Assembly: GCF_000008365.1 (NCBI RefSeq)
Contig: NC_006908.1
Coordinates: forward strand, 240,001-272,000
DNA: 32,000 nucleotides
Reading direction: 5' to 3'
Origin: Mycoplasma mobile 163K
Lineage (GTDB): Bacteria > Bacillota_I > Bacilli_A > Mycoplasmatales > Metamycoplasmataceae
Part shown: positions 2,814 to 32,000 of the stretch, in pieces
How the letters are laid out: every line of letters begins with the position of its first letter
How positions within the stretch are numbered: position 1 is the first letter of the stretch
Program-made: the position numbers and the translations under genes
Notes under the pieces: model-generated
Databases searched by the model: none
Seen by the model: the letters and a program-made list of their open reading frames with translations, nothing else
What the model was told of the DNA's origin: nothing

Positions 2814-3668
2814 TTAAAAAGTTTCTTTCAATTTAGGGCTAACACTTAATGCTATACTTCCATAACCAACATGGACCATAACTGCTCCACCTGAAATATC
2901 AATGCTTGCAATTTTTATGTTTTTACTTAATAGAACATCTTTTGCAATCTGAATTGTTTCCGGATCCAAAGTATGAACAATTCTGAACTCAAAATTCTCA
3001 ATATTTTCTTCCCCGCCTATAAATTTAATTAATTTTTCCACTACTTTTTCAGCTGCTTTTCTAACAGATCGTTTTAATCCTGAAACAGAGTTTTTATCTT
3101 TGAATTTAATAATTGGAATGAATTTCAAAGTTGTCATAACATATTTTTTCTTCCCGGTTAATCTACCACCATTAATCATAGCTTCTAGATTTTTAGGAAT
3201 TATATATGTAATTGTTTTACTATCAAAATCCTTAACAAAATCAATAATACTATCAATACTTTTTCCTTCTTCAGACATTTTTGTCAATTTTTTAGCAATG
3301 TCAAAATATAAAGTTCCTGTTAAACTATTGTTTAAAACATGAATATTTTTATATTCTTCAGTTTTAAGTCTTAATAAATTATATGTTCCTGACAATGAAG
3401 AAGAAAGCGGTAAAAAAATTAAATTTTCATATTTTTTTAAGCCATTTTCAATAATGTTATTGATTATTTCGACTGGTGGAAGTGATGTTTTTGGGTTCTT
3501 TGCATTTTTAATTAAACTTGTAGCATCTTCAAAACTATAATCTACACCATCAAGAAATACTTTTCCATCTAAATCTATTTGCAAAGGCAATTGAAAAAAA
3601 CCTTCTTGTTCTGCTACTTTTTTGCTGATTCCTGAAAAAGAATCAATTACTATTCCTAATTTTTTCAT
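2814..3668 (-). CDS. DegV family fatty-acid-binding protein (paralog 1)
   Basis: Intact 284-aa ORF. MKKLGIVIDSFSGI...KTSLPP...LSSSLSGTYN... follows the typical DegV/EDD-fold pattern. Confidence 0.85.
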   Translation of the reverse strand: MKKLGIVIDSFSGISKKVAEQEGFFQLPLQIDLDGKVFLDGVDYSFEDATSLIKNAKNPKTSLPPVEIINNIIENGLKKYENLIFLPLSSSLSGTYNLLRLKTEEYKNIHVLNNSLTGTLYFDIAKKLTKMSEEGKSIDSIIDFVKDFDSKTITYIIPKNLEAMINGGRLTGKKKYVMTTLKFIPIIKFKDKNSVSGLKRSVRKAAEKVVEKLIKFIGGEENIENFEFRIVHTLDPETIQIAKDVLLSKNIKIASIDISGGAVMVHVGYGSIALSVSPKLKETF

Positions 3669-3711
3669 AGTCCAATTATATTACAAAAGATTTCATTTAT
3701 ATTTATATATT

Positions 3712-4557
3712 TTAAATCTTTTCCCTAAAAACAATTGTAATACCTGTAAAACCACCATTTATCATTGCAGCAGCACTTGATAAGTAAATTTCATTTATTT
3801 TAAAATTCTTTTTTCCAAACATTTCCTTTGTCTCTTCTAATGCTAAAAAATCACCATTAGAAATTAAATCAATTTCATAATTTTCTATTTCTCTTTTTTG
3901 AATAAAATTTTCAATTCTATTCAAAGCTTTTTTAATTGATTTATTAATAAATGTATTTATGCTTGCAATTTTAATTCCATTTTCATCAAATTGAATTGTA
4001 AAAACTAAATTTAATTTATTTACAAAACTTTTTAAAAGAGTTGAGGCTCTTCCGCTTTTTGAAATAGTTGCAATTTTTCTTGGAATTATATAATTTATTG
4101 TTTTAGAATTGAATTCACTCACTCACTCTAAAATTTCTTCAATATCTAAACCACTATCCATTTTTTCTCTTATTGTTTTTGCAACATAAAAACCAGTTTT
4201 TCCAACAAAGCATGTATCTAAAACATGGAAATTTTTATTATCTTTTACTAAATTTTTTAATAAATTATATGTTCCTGAAAATTTTTGAGAAACAGGAATG
4301 AAAATAGCTCCATCATAATCTTTTTTTATTTCTTCAATTAAATCATTTAACAACTCTAAATTTGGTAAAGAAGTTTTACTTGATTTAGACTTGTTTATTT
4401 TTATTAAAAATTCTTCCAATGAGAAATCAACTCCTTCATTATAGGAAATATCATCTAAAATAATTTGTAAGGGAATATAAAATAAATTGTTTTCCTTTGC
4501 TTTTTCTTTTGTAATATTCGAAAATGAATCAATTACTATTGCAAATCTCTTTTTCAT
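3712..4557 (-). CDS. DegV family fatty-acid-binding protein (paralog 2)
   Basis: Track ORFs 4123..4557 and 3712..4122 are contiguous in one frame, joined by TGA at 4125-4123 (..EEILE-W-VSEFNSK..). The N-terminus MKKRFAIVIDSFSNI...KTSLPN...SQKFSGTYN parallels the neighbouring DegV. Confidence 0.85.
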
Positions 4558-15220: not shown

Positions 15221-16210
15221 ATGGAATCAGGAATAAGGCCAGGAGCAAGCAAATTATTGGGTTTTTTTAGTTGACAAGGTAACAATTGATCATTTGAGCA
15301 ATCATCGTGGCTCTCTTATTTAATTATAGCTATTGCTTTTTTTATTATCTTTTTAATGATGATTTATAAAGTAAGAATTTATCAATACATTAATTTTCAA
15401 TCAAATAATTCTAAAATTCTAAAAATTTTTCCTTCTAAGGATTCGCTTTTTCAATTTATAGGTTATTTCGGAATGTTTTTTTTCTTACTTAGAATTATTC
15501 TTTTAGCAGTAAGTGGATACCCTAATCAATGAGAATTATTGCCTCTTCATTTTTGTAGACTATTTTTGTTTTTAATTTTTTTAGCTTTTATTTTTAAAAA
15601 ACATGAATTTATTAAATATTTTGCATTTTTATCTATTGGTGGAGCCATTATAGGTTTATTTATTTCAGATTTATCTAATTCACCTTTTTGAGGTCAGGCA
15701 AATGAGCTTTTTCCTGAACAATTTGGTAGAGGTGGTTTTGATATAGGATTAGATTCTTATATTTTTTGAGATTATTTTTTAGCTCATTCGATTGCTTTAA
15801 TTATTCCTGTTTTTGTTTTAACAATTTTGAAAGTAAAAATTACTAAAAGAGATTCACAAATTTCAATCATCATTTCATTTATATTTACAATTTTTATTTT
15901 CTTTTTAAATTGGTTATTATTTGAATATGCTTCAAGAGAATGAAAAAGTAATTATTTTTACATTGGAAGATTGGTACAAATAACAATTTTTGGTAAATTA
16001 AGTGAATGACCCCTTTCTTTACTTACATATATAGTTTTAGGGATTATAATTTATTATTTAATTTTTTGAATTTGAATTTTTCAAGATAAATTTTCATTTG
16101 AAGTATCAAAAAAATATTTAATCAAAAAAATAAGTTTAAATAAGAGTCAAAATTGAATATTTTACAATTCAAAATATTTTGTGGATTTAACAAAATTTAG
16201 AAATAAGTAA
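15221..16210 (+). CDS. YwaF/TMEM164-family (TIGR02206-like) integral membrane protein
   Basis: Absent from the track because it has 11 in-frame TGA codons. I read 329 codons from ATG 15221 to TAA 16208 with no TAA or TAG. It is multi-pass hydrophobic. The motifs ELLPLHFCRL, FLAHSIALIIP and NYFYIGR match what I remember of B. subtilis YwaF (LPLHLC ... ISHGG ... NYMF). Confidence 0.7.
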
Positions 16211-18854: not shown

Positions 18855-19550
18855 TCAATTTCTATTTGGAATCTTTACAAAAATTCTCTTTAATTCAGTT
18901 AATGAATGTACCATTTCAATTTCATATTTAATATTTGCCAAAACACTTTCGTTGTTTAAAAAATTTTCTAAATCATTGAAATTGAAATTATATTCTTCAA
19001 TATTATATAGATTATTTAAGTTTAAATTATTTGGATTATCCAAAATTTCTAAATTTTTTGCAAGTAAATGAATTTCATTAGGATTTAGCTTTGCTAAGGG
19101 TGCTAAACTTTCTCTATCAATTTGATAATTTGTAAAAAGACCTAAAAAGTAATCATATAAATTAGCAGGATTTAAAATTATATAACTCATCTCAAGAGCA
19201 ATTCCATCCAAAACACTAGATCTAATTTTCTCTTTAATCTTTTCTCTTGATTTTTCGTTATCGAAAGTTAAAATATTTTCAAAAGACAAATAAGGAATTG
19301 TCAAATCAATTTCATTAAAGTCCAACTTTATTTTTTCCAATAAATTAGTCATTTCTTTTCTGTCATCTTCATTAATTGCATCAATTGGCAAAATCAATGC
19401 TAAAGAATTATTAGGAAATGCTTTTTTAGCTAAAAAAGCTAAAATTTTGCTATTTTCTGTTTTGTCTAAAACCAAAATAACTCCTTTTTTATTAGAATTT
19501 TTTACTTCAGTTTTTATTCACTGAGTCAAAAAATCAATATATTCCTTCAT
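18855..19550 (-). CDS. NAD+ synthetase (NadE)-like protein lacking the SGGxDS PP-loop (probable pseudoenzyme)
   Basis: Track ORF 18855..19475 extends upstream through one TGA to ATG 19550 (MKEYIDFLTQWIKTEVKNSNKKGVILVLDKTENS...). It is collinear by eye with B. subtilis NadE ([26 protein letters not shown]...). The start overlaps the galE stop (TAATG), with AAGGA upstream. Confidence 0.55.
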
Positions 19551-20542
19551 TATTTATCCTTTAAAATTTTTTTTCTTCAAGCAAGTTCTGTTTTAACAAT
19601 CTCTTCCAAACTGAATTTTGGTTTAAAATTCAATATTTTTGCAATTTTTGTTGTTGAAGCAACTAAAAAAGCAGGGTCTCCATCTCTTTTAGGATTAATT
19701 TCATAATTTAATTTTTTATTAAGTTGTTTTTCAAAAGTTTTAACAACTTCTAATACTGAAAATCCTTTTTCAGATCCAACATTTACAATTAAATTAGTTT
19801 TATTTTCAAAAATGTATTTTGCAGCAAGAAAATGAGCATGAGCTAAATCTTGAACATGAATATAATCTCTTATACAAGTTCCATCTTTTGTGTCATAATT
19901 ATTTCCAAAAATTTTTAGAGAGTCTAATTCATTGAAAACAAAAGATGAAATAGAAGGGATAAGATGAGAAACTTTATGGCCTTTTTTTGGAACTAAACCT
20001 ATAGAGTTATTTTGATGTGCACCTGCTACATTAAAATAACGCAAAATTGCAAATTTAAAATCATTTACATGAGCATAATCCTGAATAATTTTTTCAGACA
20101 TTTGTTTGGAAGAACCATATGGATTAATAGGATTTAAATCCTCATCTTCTCTAATCGGTAAATTTGATTTTTGTCCATAAACAGCTGCAGTAGAAGAAAA
20201 AATTAAAAACTTTTTATTATTTTCTTTCATAGATTCAAGCAAAATCATTACTCCATAAGTATTATTCAAATAATATTTAAGTGGTTCATAAACACTTTCA
20301 CTTACAACAATTGATGCAGCAAAATTTATTACAATTTCAATTTCTTTATTTTCATCAAAAATTTTATTTAAAATTTTTTTGTCTTTAAAATCTCCTTCAT
20401 AAAATTTAGCTTCTGGATGAATAGAAGAATTTGATCCAGTTGTTAAATTATCTAAAATAACAACTTTGTTATTATTTTCAATCAATTCATAAACTGTGTG
20501 GCTGCCAATATAACCAGCGCCTCCAATTACTAAATAAGTCAT
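19550..20542 (-). CDS. galE: UDP-glucose 4-epimerase
   Basis: MTYLVIGGAGYIGSH (GxxGxxG), the catalytic YGSSK (YxxxK), and RYFNVAGA. Track ORF 19577..20542 extends through TGA to TAA at 19552-19550 (..ELA-W-RKKILKDK*). Confidence 0.92.
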
Positions 20543-27655: not shown

Positions 27656-28456
27656 TTAAATTAAATATTTTTTCAAAATGGTTCAATAAGCCTTCTCATT
27701 TTCGATAAAAGCCAAATGGGAAATATTTTCTATTATTTCTCATTTGGCATTTTTTAAAACTTGACTTAAAATTTCATAGCTTTTTTCAAAAGGAACAATT
27801 TCATCTTTATTTCCAAAAATAATAATTGTCCTAGTTTCAATTACTCTCATTTTTTGTTGCGTTAAATTCATAGCTTTAGATCAAATTTTAAATTCTAACA
27901 TAACACTTAGATCTTGAACAGTGTTTGATTGTTGTTTTTTGAACTCGTAATTCACTCACTGATTTAATTCGTTTTCATGTTCTTTAAATTTAAACTTATA
28001 AATCATGCTTTTAAACACATCCTTTAAATCATTTACATCCTTTGAAATCATTTTTTCTATAATTTTTTTATTTTCTAAAACACTTAAATTTGCCGGTCCT
28101 TCTAAAATTAAAATCCTGATTTTTGTTCCTAAATTTGCTGCTACAATTGAAGCAATCGCCCCTCCCATTGAATGACCTATAATTATCAAATTATCCTCAA
28201 TTTGATATTTTTTTATAAAATCTAAAACTAATTCGGAAAAGTATTTAACTCTTAGTTTATTTTTCGGAAAATTGTTTGAATTGCCATGATTAGGAAAATC
28301 TATTCCATACCAATTGTACATATTAAATTTTTCAAAAGTCTTTTCCCTACTCAAAAATTTACTAGTAAATCCATGAATAAATAAAATATTATTGTTATAT
28401 TCATTGTTTTTTATTATGTACTCTGCTATTCCATTTTCATTTAAAAATTGGTTCAT
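27656..28456 (-). CDS. Alpha/beta hydrolase (esterase/lipase family)
   Basis: ORF 27956..28456 extends about 100 codons through four TGA codons to TAA 27658-27656. HGFTS oxyanion region, nucleophile elbow GHSMGG, and a C-terminal ..IENISHLAFIE (catalytic His region). Confidence 0.85.
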
Positions 28457-28525: not shown

Positions 28526-29206
28526 ATGAATAAAAAAACATTATATCAAGCAAATACTTTTGCAACAATTCAAAATAAACACTACAAAGGAGATATGTCT
28601 CTTTTAGAAGTTTTAAAAAAAGGTAAATTTGGAGTTGGGACTTTTAATTATACAGATGGAGAATTTATTTTAAAAGATGGCATTCCTTATTTAGCAGATA
28701 CAAATATGAATTTAGTAAAACCAAGTGAAAAACTATTTTTACCATTATATAGTGTAGGGGATATCAATAATAGTCAAAAAAGTTATAAACTTTCAAGTTC
28801 AATGAAAATGAAAGATTTTTTACTTTTTTTAGAAAATCAATTGAATTTGAAAAATTATCCTGCTCTTTTAAATATTGAAGTTAGTTTAGAAAGCGCTTTA
28901 TTAAGAAGTATTAAAAAACAAGAAGAACCTTTTTTAAATTTTATTGATAGTCTGAAAAAGTATGAAGTAAGAAAAGAACTTAAAAATCTTGAAGGTTCAT
29001 TAATTGGAGTTTGATACCCTAAACACTTACAACCCATTAATAATTCAGGTTTTCATTTTCATTTTATTGACAAAACAAACAAAATAGGTGGTCATTTACT
29101 TGATTTTGAAATTAAACCAAACATTAAAATTGCTTTTGAAGAAAAAACAAATCTTGTTGTAGAATTTTCAGAAAATGAAGATTTGAAAAATTTAACTATT
29201 ATTTAA
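28526..29206 (+). CDS. alsD: Alpha-acetolactate decarboxylase
   Basis: ORF 28526..29014 extends through TGA 29012 to TAA 29204. LYQANTFATIQNKHYKGDMSLLEVLKKGKFGVGTFNYTDGEFI.. and ..GVWYPKHLQPINNSGFHFHFIDKTNKIGGHLLDF follow the ALDC pattern, including the H-x-H ... GGH metal ligands. Confidence 0.8.
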
Positions 29207-29249: not shown

Positions 29250-32000
29250 ATGGAATTTAAAAATATTTATAATAAATGAAACTCTTTTAAAACAAAAGAT
29301 CCAATATTTAAAAAATCTTTACTAAAAATTAGTGATCAAAAACTTTTTAGTGAAGCTTTTTCATCTTCTTTGAAAATTCATAATTCTCGAATTGTTGCAA
29401 AAATGGGAGCCAATACAAATCACTTAAATGAATTCACTATTACAGCAATTGCAGAAAGTTATGCAAATTTTATAAAACAGCTACCCAATTTTCAAAACAA
29501 AGGTATTATTATTAATTATGATAATCGAATTAATTCTGAATTATATGCAAAAACATTTGCCCATGTATTAAATTCAAATGGTGTATCTGCATTTTTTTTT
29601 AATAACAAATCTTCTACTCCGATAGAATTTTTGCCCTTTACAATAAAAAAATATCAACTTGAAGGCGGGGTTAATGTTTCAAGTTCAAAAAATTATAAAG
29701 GAATTAATGGACTATTATTTTATAAACAAGATGCTTTTTTATTAACAAGCGAAGATGAAGAAAAAATTCAAGAAAATTTAAAATCAACAATTTATTTGTC
29801 AAATCCTGAAGAAGTTCAAGAATATAAAATAAAGTATTTAGATTTTGAAATCGAAAATGAAATTGTTAATTTTTACAAAAGTCATTACAAGAGTAATTTA
29901 GAAAAAAAAATAAGAATTCAATTTAGTAGTTTGTATGGTACTTCAGAAATATTTAGTAAAATTTTAGGACAAATTGGTTTTGATGTAAATTTTGTAAAAT
30001 CAGAGTCAGAAAATGCAAAAAAAGTTAATCCTTGACAAAATTTAAAAAGAAAATCTTATTCGAGTTCAAATCCAAAAAGTTTAAATCGTGCAATCTTAAA
30101 AGCAAGACTTACAAATAGGAATTTTTGTGTAGCAATAAATCCTGATGGGTCCAAATTTTCTATTGCTATAAAACACAAAAAGAGATTTAAATATCTTAAA
30201 TCTTCTGAATTAGCAGCAATATATCTTAAATATGTTTTAGAAGATAGAAAAATTAAAGATCTTAATTTTAAAAATTTAAATATTGTTAAATCTTTCGGGA
30301 CAAGTTCTTTAATTAATAAAATAGCAAGAAAACATGATATTAATGTTATTGAAACATTCCATGATCTTAAAATAGATGAGAAAACAAAAGTTTTACTTGC
30401 TTTAGATGAAGATTTTGGTTTTTATGATTATAAGAGCAATTCAAATTTTAAAGATGCTTTTTCAATAATTATAACTTTAGTGGAAGCTGCTAATTTTTAT
30501 TTAAATACTCAATCAAAAGATTTTTTTGAAATTTTACAAGAGATAGAAAAAGAATATAATGTGCATAGAATTAGTTCTAAAAAAAGTATTATTTCTAATA
30601 ATAAGGCAAAAAGATTTTTTACAAGACTCGAAAATGCAACATACTTAGGAAAGAAAAAGATTGTAAATAAATATAGTTATATAGAAAATATTTCAAATGG
30701 TCAAAAACAGATACTTATTTTAAAATTAATTGATTTTAGTACAATAACTGTAGAATATAGTTCTGGTGATAAAATATTAAAATTATTTGTAGAAGTTATA
30801 GGTAAAAAAGAAGAATTATTAATGGATGTTGTTATAAATGAAAGACAAATTTATAATGACATAAAAGAATTTAACGAAGTAGATGAGAGTAAAAAAATTG
30901 GAAAAAAAGATATTTTTAGATACTCTATTTTTATTTCCATTTTTATTTTAATTTTTGTTTTTTTATTTCAAACAATTTATAGTTTGAATGGGAATCCTTC
31001 AGAAATTTTTAACCAAATTTCAAATATTTTATTACCGAATAAGGCTAATTTATACTTTTATGTTGCTCTTGTTTTATTTTCTGTTTTAGATATTAGTATT
31101 AGATCTTTTTCTCTTAAGAGAATGCTTCTTATTTTAGGACAAAAAGTAAAATTTAAGGATCTTTTTATAGGTGCTTATTTAGGAATTGCTCTTACAAATA
31201 TCACTCCTCTTCCAGGTGGTGGTGGAGATGTAATAACTTATTGATATTTAAGAAGAAGAGGAGTTGAAAGATCTTCTTTATATGCTTCAATTTTAATGGG
31301 ATCTATTCTTTATTCTTCTACTGTTGTTATAATGACTGTAATTTTTCTACCTATAGGAATAACTTTTTATGCAAAAGTTTTTGAAAATCCAGATCCTGCA
31401 ACTATAACTTTAATCATTTTTCTTTCAATAGGAACTTTATTTGATATTTTTAGTGCATCAATGATTACTTTAATTTCAGTAAATAAAAAATTACAAGAGT
31501 GAATAGTAAGAACTTCAATTAAATTTTTAGAATGAATTCCTTTTGTTACTATAAGCGATCCTGGTAGTGTTGCTAGTAAATTTCAATATGAATTTAGTGA
31601 AATTAGAAAAGGAATAAAAATGCTCACAAGAAAAAAGCGATATCTTTTTGAACAATTAGGATTTTATTTTATTCCTTGATTTATTTCTTCAGGCTCAACT
31701 TTAGGTGCAACAATTTTTCAAAATTCTGGAAGAATTATTCCGAATCTTCCTGCTGGTACATATTTTAATCTTTTAAGTGGGTCATCCTTATTAAGGGCTG
31801 CTAATTCAGTTTCTATAACACCAGGCGGGACAGGAACAATTGATTTATTTACAACAAGAATTTTTGAATTTATTTTTATCCCTACAAACAATTCTATTAG
31901 CAATTCAGCAGTTTTTTCACTTATGGATAGATTAATTAATTTAATTACTCCAACAATTCTTTCCTTTTTGTTAATAATAACAATTTATTTTGGTGAAAGA
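29250..32000 (+). CDS. Fusion protein: degenerate alpha-D-phosphohexomutase (PGM/PMM)-like domain plus a C-terminal flippase-like (LPG-synthase-TM/UPF0104-type) membrane domain; 3' end outside the window
   Basis: ATG 29250 follows AAGGA. Track ORFs 29370.., 30480.. and 31296.. all share frame 0. I read 917 codons to the window edge and found only TGA interruptions (29277, 30033, 31242, 31500, 31533, 31677). The N-terminal 550 aa or so are collinear with PgcA-type phosphoglucomutase. From about 30921 there are 8 or more hydrophobic segments with ITPLPGGGGD and ITPGGTGT motifs. Confidence 0.75.

Follow-up and report, generated by a model that had tools for sequence, protein, structure and literature searches.

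The flippase domain of MprF was named PplT by Hauser et al., who described it as a stand-alone protein or as part of fusions in 148 architectures, with aminoacyl-phosphatidylglycerol (Aa-PG) synthases, GT-A and GT-B glycosyltransferases and kinases among its partners; Mollicutes and mutase partners go unmentioned in that survey (10.1101/2022.03.11.483950). PplT domains are widely fused to, or encoded in operons with, lipid head-group enzymes (10.1101/2022.03.11.483950; PMC12713373). An example is the Pseudomonas aeruginosa gpgSDF operon, where the UPF0104 protein GpgF is encoded alongside enzymes making glucosaminyl-phosphatidylglycerol, and which was compared with hexSDF of Clostridioides difficile (PMC12713373). 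Here, we analyzed a gene located at the end of a 32,000-nucleotide stretch of the Mycoplasma mobile 163K genome (contig NC_006908.1, positions 240,001 to 272,000, forward strand; "the window" hereafter), in which a phosphohexomutase fold that has lost its catalytic motifs is joined in frame to a PplT-type membrane domain. The species, [Mycoplasma] mobile, belongs to the Metamycoplasmataceae, genus Mesomycoplasma. The parts of the gene discussed below are the following, with residues numbered from the first methionine.

29250..32000, + strand: fusion open reading frame (ORF), codons 1-917 of 965, translated with genetic code 4 with six TGA codons read as tryptophan; the end of the window interrupts the ORF.
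29250..30884, + strand: N-terminal cytoplasmic phosphohexomutase-like domain, residues 1-545, with the four-domain phosphoglucomutase (PGM) fold (Pfam, alignment, AlphaFold2 and Foldseek).
29679..29696, + strand: former phosphoserine loop, SSSKNY in place of TASHNP, from residue 144; S146 is kept at the phospho-acceptor position, while Lys and Tyr stand where canonical loops have His and Pro (MAFFT).
30138..30155, + strand: former metal loop, NPDGSK in place of DPDADR, from residue 297; of the three Asp ligands only D299 is kept, and the Arg is missing (MAFFT).
30402..30425, + strand: former sugar loop, LDEDFGFY in place of GFEESFGY, from residue 385; one Glu is replaced by Asp, E387 is kept, Ser is replaced by Asp (MAFFT).
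30753..30773, + strand: former phosphate loop, EYSSGDK in place of RPSGTEPK, from residue 502; Arg is replaced by Glu (MAFFT).
30915..32000, + strand: PF03706/PplT (MprF-flippase-type) polytopic membrane domain, residue 556 onward (Pfam, AlphaFold2 and Foldseek).
31206..31229, + strand: membrane motif 1, PLPGGGGD, from residue 653, followed by YWYLRRRG; P653 and W665 are invariant, and T652, G658, G659 and Y666 nearly so (family alignment).
31818..31838, + strand: membrane motif 2, TPGGTGT, from residue 857, preceded by ANSVS; P858 and G862 are invariant, and N852 and G859 nearly so (family alignment).

The window has a G+C content of about 25% and contains in-frame TGA codons. The ORF starts at an ATG at position 29250, with AAGGA just ahead, and is open past the window end, with 917 codons inside it; TGA is read as tryptophan at 29277, 30033, 31242, 31500, 31533 and 31677. 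The complete protein has 965 amino acids (AAT27688.1, WP_011264722.1, Q6KI88). An initial annotation of the window, made from the nucleotide sequence alone, had described one unbroken frame-0 reading frame with TGA as tryptophan and a stop beyond position 32000. Translation with code 4 agrees with this reading, the product ends at residue 965, and the six motifs quoted in that annotation lie exactly where it had placed them. The possibility that two neighboring genes were merged by a sequencing or assembly error is effectively refuted: nothing was found in its favor, the code-4 frame has neither a stop codon nor a frameshift, the 965-residue sequence is identical in the NCBI genome (777 kb) and in an independent Logan assembly, and homologs from many genomes, in about 48 sequence clusters, align with it without interruption from end to end. 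At the sequence level these comparisons showed that the gene encodes a single polypeptide with two halves. A scan of the DNA returned 41 promoter-like sites, compared to 36 expected, and no terminators, both scans being uninformative in DNA this rich in AT.

The N-terminal half was recognized by the Pfam model PGM_PMM_I (1.3e-18, 67.5 bits, cutoff 22.5), while PGM_PMM_II and PGM_PMM_III scored below their cutoffs and domain IV (PF00408) produced no match. The domain composition expected in the initial annotation was therefore recovered in part, the first mutase domain and PF03706 being above threshold and the others below it or absent. The collinearity with PgcA-type mutases that it had noted by eye over residues 1 to about 550 was borne out by a MAFFT alignment with 11 canonical PgcA-type mutases, which extends across all four domains. 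Comparison of this half of an AlphaFold2 (AF2) model with solved structures using Foldseek identified PGMs with TM-scores up to 0.80 (E 1e-18). The alignment, properly gapped, leaves all signature loops changed: none of the four motifs that define the superfamily (phosphoserine, metal, sugar and phosphate loops) is intact in the M. mobile protein, and the GTxGxRG loop of canonical mutases is replaced by HNSRIVA. The earlier claim that all four signatures are altered holds for every loop, but it overlooked three residues that are still in place, S146 at the phosphoserine position, D299 as the middle Asp of the metal loop and E387 as the second Glu of the sugar loop. Alignment and predicted structure together showed that the N-terminal half is a complete four-domain phosphohexomutase fold stripped of its catalytic motifs. 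The NCBIfam model NF045968 (MAG5620 family putative phospho-sugar mutase) was considered as a description of the fused proteins and rejected, the M. mobile protein and the fused protein of Mycoplasmopsis agalactiae both scoring 41 bits against a cutoff of 115; no NCBIfam model covers them.

The C-terminal half matches PF03706 (LPG_synthase_TM; 5e-14, 52.9 bits, cutoff 33.4) over model positions 4-301 of 302, and the membrane domain runs on past the window to residue 965, ending in one additional transmembrane helix. Residues 546-965 were modeled separately with a predicted local distance difference test score (pLDDT) of 84.6, and in a Foldseek comparison of this model with the Protein Data Bank (PDB) the top five meaningful matches were all MprF structures (9j8s, 9goe, 9j8q, 6lvf and 7duw). 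These proteins, from P. aeruginosa and R. tropici, were matched with a probability of 1.0 and a TMq of 0.40-0.47 over about 386 columns. Matches to other proteins had a root-mean-square deviation (rmsd) above 20 Å and low probability. The flippase-like domain proposed in the initial annotation was thus recovered by both profile and fold, and its central claim, an in-frame fusion of a degenerate phosphohexomutase to a PF03706 domain, agrees with Pfam, MAFFT, AF2 and Foldseek. The M. mobile fusion is not MprF itself, since an Aa-PG synthase domain (DUF2156/PF09924) was not detected with Pfam and the score with NF033480 (bifunc_MprF) was 21.5 bits against a cutoff of 600. The full-length AF2 model, built from a 48-sequence family alignment, had a pLDDT of 87 and a predicted TM-score (pTM) of 0.81, a value that suggests a fixed docking of the two modeled halves. 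A match to a G protein-coupled receptor on 'YWYFRR', obtained when the membrane-half profile was compared with PDB sequences, was spurious.

The extent of the family was determined by an exhaustive hmmsearch of 1.84 billion cluster representatives. About 48 clusters, defined at 50% identity, consist of proteins of 890-990 amino acids that align over their whole length as one continuous match; their composition is that of AT-rich genomes throughout, none has shed its N-terminal half, and all members with a named host are from Mollicutes. The M. mobile protein aligns with them over about 950 residues and has both family motifs, TP..GG[DE]...YWYLRRKG and ANSxSxTPGGxGT. The only other fused protein found in an indexed protein search, P0002, is 64% identical to it. 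Hosts were named by scanning genomes with a degenerate DNA pattern for N-S-x-S-x-T-P-G-G-x-G-T-x-[D/E]. Two of the 18 matches, in an Aenigmatarchaeota and a Proteobacteria metagenome-assembled genome (MAG), were due to chance. The scan identified Mycoplasmopsis agalactiae, bovis, gallinarum, lipofaciens, primatum, hyopharyngis and mucosicanis, Mycoplasma simbae, elephantis and zalophidermidis, and several MAGs; cluster look-up added M. miroungigenitalium and Mesomycoplasma molare.

The fusion, for which the initial annotation could not tell whether it was already catalogued, is neither a one-off nor new to the databases. It belongs to a family with catalytically intact and degenerate members, its Pfam domains are precomputed, and its M. 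bovis ortholog MBOVPG45_0728 appears in a transposon study. In RefSeq the family appears under 'lysylphosphatidylglycerol synthase (TM) domain-containing', 'flippase-like domain-containing' or 'YbhN family'; for M. mobile the RefSeq name is 'LPG synthase (TM) domain-containing protein' and the UniProt name 'Phosphoglucomutase/phosphomannomutase'. The mutase-PplT architecture is catalogued in databases and unstudied. Other proteins of the same mutase lineage were also observed. P0069 (780 amino acids) has canonical PGM_PMM_I-IV followed by PNP_UDP_1 (purine/uridine phosphorylase), an arrangement that suggests a phosphopentomutase-phosphorylase, and P0063 (880 amino acids) joins a PGM to a region with a weak match to BspA-type leucine-rich repeats. 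P0057, P0067 and P0070 are stand-alone AT-rich mutase-like proteins of about 525-550 amino acids with degenerate catalytic motifs; either unfused pseudo-mutases also exist or these are split or fragmentary fused genes.

About ten representatives, together with the oyster-associated Mycoplasma sp. ATU-Cv-703, keep GTAGIRG, TASHNP, DPDADR, EES and RPSGTEPK, and these motif-intact (canonical) members carry PGM_PMM_I-IV as well as PF03706. Approximately 38 clusters are degenerate, including those of M. mobile, M. bovis (MBOVPG45_0728), M. agalactiae and every cultured Metamycoplasmataceae species sampled, and most of them are eroded further than the M. mobile protein. Across the family PF03706 was detected in all 48 members, PGM_PMM_I in 31 and domain IV in 8. 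The invariant and near-invariant columns (P653, W665, P858, G862, T652, G658, G659, Y666, Q689, P701, Y838, N852, G859 and S905) are all in the membrane half. Among canonical members the N-terminal half is more conserved than the C-terminal half (41% versus 32%), and the relation is reversed in degenerate members (20% versus 28%). A tree of the membrane half was built by neighbor joining (a midpoint-rooted distance tree only). Canonical members are basal and paraphyletic in this tree and degenerate ones are nested among them several times: P0016 stands beside the canonical P0014, to which it is 65% identical in the C-terminal and 42% in the N-terminal half, P0050 groups with P0033 and P0036 with P0025, and one large degenerate clade contains M. 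mobile and Mycoplasmopsis. Given this repeated nesting and the large clade, catalysis was probably lost at least four times.

In the lineage of M. mobile, codon comparisons indicate that the dead mutase half is still under purifying selection. Between M. mobile and its 64% identical relative the ratio of nonsynonymous to synonymous substitution rates (dN/dS, Nei-Gojobori) is 0.27 in the N-terminal half and 0.27 in the membrane half, with dS of about 0.9. The five former active-site loops are 79% identical between the two proteins, compared to 60% for the rest of the N-terminal half (Fisher p = 0.0016), and NPDGSK and EDFGFYDYKS are the same in both, the identity across the N-domain being 63%.

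The genes around related members point to a role in glycolipid or glycoconjugate export, as had been proposed in the initial annotation. In uncultured lineages, glycosyltransferases are found within a few genes in nine of ten contexts, immediately adjacent in five, and the clusters also hold LicD, IspD/nucleotidyltransferase, choline-kinase, HAD, PGI and NagA/NagB genes. Canonical members mostly adjoin glycosyltransferases, LicD phosphotransferases and nucleotidyltransferases. Among the members from uncultured lineages, the canonical P0014 has a GT2 gene on both sides, then SDR and IspD genes and two LicD genes; P0015 has a DXD glycosyltransferase on one side and a HAD sugar phosphatase on the other; P0017 faces PGI, an aminotransferase, a nucleotidyltransferase and an abhydrolase-GT2 fusion; P0047 starts 3 nucleotides past a GT4 gene, with NagA, NagB and a phosphotransferase system (PTS) upstream; P0029 is followed 2 nucleotides later by a GT4 gene and then by ATP-grasp, a second GT4 and GT2; and P0025 has GT2, GT4 and an acyltransferase within a few kb. 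The degenerate P0016, P0036 and P0050 retain this glycosyltransferase-type context, and around P0050 there are a choline-kinase/nucleotidyltransferase fusion, EamA, GT2, HAD, TMEM164, an aminotransferase and a nucleotidyltransferase. In Mycoplasmopsis the fusion gene is divergent from fmt in housekeeping surroundings, and P0028, from the clade next to M. mobile, has housekeeping neighbors only. Two further features of these contexts were noted. A few genes from P0014, an uncultured mollicute encodes an 1100-amino acid GH85 endo-beta-N-acetylglucosaminidase (locus L022, 1719-5021, - strand). Locus L031 (GCA_024721275.1, 2010-16745) is a compact cluster resembling a phosphocholine-glycolipid pathway, in the order DXD glycosyltransferase, nucleotidyltransferase and choline-kinase fusion, EamA, the fused gene, GT2, abhydrolase, two HAD phosphatases, TMEM164, aminotransferase and nucleotidyltransferase.

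Taking these observations together, we consider it most likely that the M. mobile protein translocates a lipid or glycolipid and that its cytoplasmic part, derived from a mutase, is a module without catalytic function, a reading to which we assign a probability of about 55%. The C-terminal PplT/MprF-type half would move a membrane lipid, most likely a glycolipid or phospholipid, between leaflets. The cytoplasmic N-terminal half, derived from a PgcA/ManB-type hexose-phosphate mutase, would now be non-catalytic and serve in ligand binding and regulation or as a scaffold. The ancestor may have been bifunctional, its active mutase supplying hexose-1-phosphate to neighboring nucleotidyltransferases and glycosyltransferases in a pathway leading from sugar-6-phosphate through sugar-1-phosphate and NDP-sugar to a glycosyl-lipid, perhaps with LicD-type decoration, and then to translocation by the fused PplT. 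In the cultured, host-adapted Metamycoplasmataceae, M. mobile among them, catalysis would have been lost and the translocator kept with the old mutase body attached, a stand-alone mutase being also present at least in M. bovis; strain HB0801 of this species has a separate probable phosphomannomutase and GalU (PMC5426083). The interpretation given in the initial annotation is partly supported, and we recast the protein as a relatively well-preserved pseudoenzyme of the mutase-PplT family. The sensor or gate role suggested there is plausible in view of the purifying selection and the conservation of the former loops. This extra conservation and the ROK sugar kinase encoded next to the fusion gene make us lean towards ligand binding by the N-terminal half. 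A more specific scheme, in which a hexose phosphate, for example glucose-6-phosphate made by the ROK kinase, or the sugar-phosphate head-group of a phosphoglycolipid would occupy the conserved old cleft and allosterically gate or feed the PplT translocator, is rather unlikely to be correct.

Several points weigh against the proposal of a lipid or glycolipid translocator. Lipid translocation by PF03706 proteins other than MprF is mostly inferred. The likeness to MprF is moderate, with TM-scores of 0.40-0.47 at an rmsd of about 9.6 Å; the flippase-like model TIGR00374 was missed (35-37 bits, cutoff 43.2); and a sequence profile of the membrane half did not reach MprF among PDB sequences. No glycosyltransferase adjoins the gene in M. 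mobile or other cultured species, so the glycolipid link there is by homology only, and the export role put forward in the initial annotation is favored by the neighborhoods of related members but not by that of M. mobile. With S146, D299 and E387 retained, the N-domain may have residual or altered chemistry.

A different explanation would be a general phospholipid scramblase, similar to stand-alone YbhN/PplT and without a sugar link in M. mobile, in which the mutase half is an inert folded spacer whose loss would be destabilizing. The confinement of the family-wide invariant columns to the membrane half, an N-terminal half that falls below Pfam detection in 17 of 48 members, the transposon insertions that M. 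bovis tolerates inside this half and the lack of glycosyltransferase neighbors in M. mobile are all in line with a spacer, and P. aeruginosa MprF is a promiscuous scramblase according to a citation in PMC12713373. A spacer, however, accounts poorly for an N-terminal half that every member keeps at a total length of 890-990 residues, that has the same dN/dS as the membrane half and whose former active-site loops are better conserved than its remainder, and we regard this explanation as somewhat unlikely. In another explanation the N-domain would have kept enzymatic activity of a changed kind, for instance as a metal-independent or differently liganded phosphotransferase or phosphatase acting on a sugar phosphate or phosphoglycolipid head-group. 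The phospho-acceptor Ser, one Asp and one Glu are kept, NPDGSK and EDFGFYDYKS are unchanged in a relative only 63% identical over the domain, and the domain is under purifying selection. Nonetheless, two of three metal-binding Asp residues, the Arg of the metal loop, the Arg of the phosphate loop (now Glu) and the GTxGxRG loop are lost, and the Ser is also gone in most other degenerate members, so that the family as a whole shows no shared replacement for the catalytic residues; continued enzymatic activity therefore appears improbable.

The membrane half might instead handle a soluble substrate, a sugar phosphate or another solute, as a transporter or channel, with the mutase-like domain as its cytoplasmic substrate-binding part. 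Lipid flipping has been demonstrated experimentally for MprF only, Foldseek returned weak matches to CitS and anion exchangers, ranked below MprF, and sugar-phosphate enzymes (PTS, PGI, NagA/NagB and ROK) are encoded nearby in several contexts. Against these stand the poor quality of all structural matches outside MprF, the detection of PF03706 above threshold in every one of the 48 members and the dominance of glycosyltransferases and LicD-type lipid or polymer head-group enzymes in the neighborhoods, which make solute transport highly improbable.

If the more specific scheme of a ligand-gated translocator were correct, sugar supply would be coupled to surface glycolipid export in a wall-less bacterium, and the M. 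mobile protein would be a bacterial lipid flippase regulated by a pseudoenzyme, a type of protein that would have arisen repeatedly from a bifunctional mutase-flippase ancestor. How lipids and glycolipids cross the bacterial cytoplasmic membrane is poorly understood, glycolipids exposed at the surface are major antigens of the wall-less mycoplasmas, and the family provides a concrete candidate translocator in Mollicutes. It also offers a natural experiment, with intact members in glycosyltransferase clusters on one side and, on the other, several independent lineages in which the enzyme half is dead, attached and selected. Comparison of intact and dead members could reveal which contribution, besides catalysis, a PplT/MprF-type flippase receives from its cytoplasmic partner, and M. 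bovis transposon mutants usable for lipidomics already exist.

The genes next to the fusion in M. mobile include the following.

28526..29206, + strand: alpha-acetolactate decarboxylase (PF03306), the upstream neighbor; its synteny is kept with the 64% identical relative only and no functional link was shown.
27656..28456, - strand: alpha/beta-hydrolase, compared with the abhydrolases of related clusters.

Downstream of the fusion gene there are a ROK sugar kinase, an MFS transporter, a GDPD phosphodiesterase and an amino-acid permease, and the flanking genes common to M. mobile and P0002 are the decarboxylase and the ROK kinase only. The alpha/beta-hydrolase, to which the initial annotation had drawn attention as lipase-like, was considered as a part of the system and rejected. 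It has no similarity to the abhydrolases that recur in related glycolipid clusters, and it is probably not part of the system. Elsewhere in the window, a membrane protein of the TMEM164 family (PF14808, 3e-30) is encoded at 15221-16210 (+ strand), at a distance of 13 kb from the fusion. Homologs recur in glycolipid-type clusters with fused members (L024 and L031), the one in L031 being 34% identical, and the protein may be a partner with a role in lipids. The presence of a GalE-type NAD-dependent epimerase (PF01370, 9e-53; 19550-20542, - strand) implies nucleotide-sugar metabolism in M. mobile, for which a working hexose-phosphate mutase would be required somewhere in the genome. Two tandem ORFs (2814-3680 and 3712-4557, both - strand) have DegV-like N-termini (MKK..IVIDS) assigned by eye; DegV proteins are fatty-acid-binding proteins.

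Among known proteins, the orthologs M. bovis MBOVPG45_0728 and M. pulmonis MYPU_4840 are in the same fused family and have degenerate mutase motifs, but their N-terminal halves are more eroded than that of M. mobile and their genes adjoin fmt rather than acetolactate decarboxylase and ROK genes. MBOVPG45_0728 has 2973 bp, or 990 amino acids, equal to the length of the ORF at locus L014. In M. bovis PG45 it is annotated as a 'PGM/PMM domain-containing protein' and is dispensable in vitro, with transposon insertions at 35.4% and 47.1% of the ORF, while MYPU_4840 (26% identity) had earlier been scored as essential; an ortholog is present in 8 of 20 mycoplasma species, M. genitalium being without it (PMC4045577). 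Table 2 of that paper marks MYPU_4840 as essential without a '#' and its text lists the M. bovis ortholog among genes later found dispensable in M. pulmonis, a conflict that makes the essentiality of MYPU_4840 ambiguous.

The soluble PgcA/ManB-type alpha-D-phosphohexomutases, such as the Streptococcus PgcA-like proteins P0004-P0010, share with the M. mobile domain a collinear four-domain fold at 23-26% identity and differ from it in that their TASHNP, DPDADR, EES and RPSGTEPK loops are intact, whereas the M. mobile domain has lost them and is tethered to the membrane. The PGM fold is also found in vertebrate PGM5/aciculin and Paramecium parafusin, whose structures are among the Foldseek fold matches. 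Both have been reported to be non-catalytic; unlike the M. mobile protein, they come from eukaryotes, are soluble or associated with the cytoskeleton, and carry no membrane domain. On the membrane side, the PplT proteins that stand alone or belong to an operon (E. coli YbhN, P. aeruginosa GpgF and C. difficile HexF; COG0392 'AglD2/YbhN') have the membrane domain family in common with the fusion. GpgF and HexF are encoded with glycosyltransferases building glycosylated lipids (PMC12713373), in keeping with the gene surroundings of the canonical members, but none of the three is fused to an enzyme, and the flippase role of GpgF is putative. Fusions of glycosyltransferases to PplT (archaeal GT-A-PplT and actinobacterial GT-B-PplT; 10.1101/2022.03.11.483950) have the same order, an N-terminal sugar-handling enzyme followed by PplT, with a glycosyltransferase where the M. 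mobile family has a mutase. MprF is the best structural match of the M. mobile membrane half and, like the fusion, has a PF03706/PplT membrane module joined covalently to a cytoplasmic domain handling a lipid head-group precursor. Its flippase is N-terminal and its tRNA-dependent synthase (DUF2156) C-terminal, an order that is reversed in the M. mobile fusion, where a catalytically dead phosphohexomutase fold takes the place of the synthase domain.

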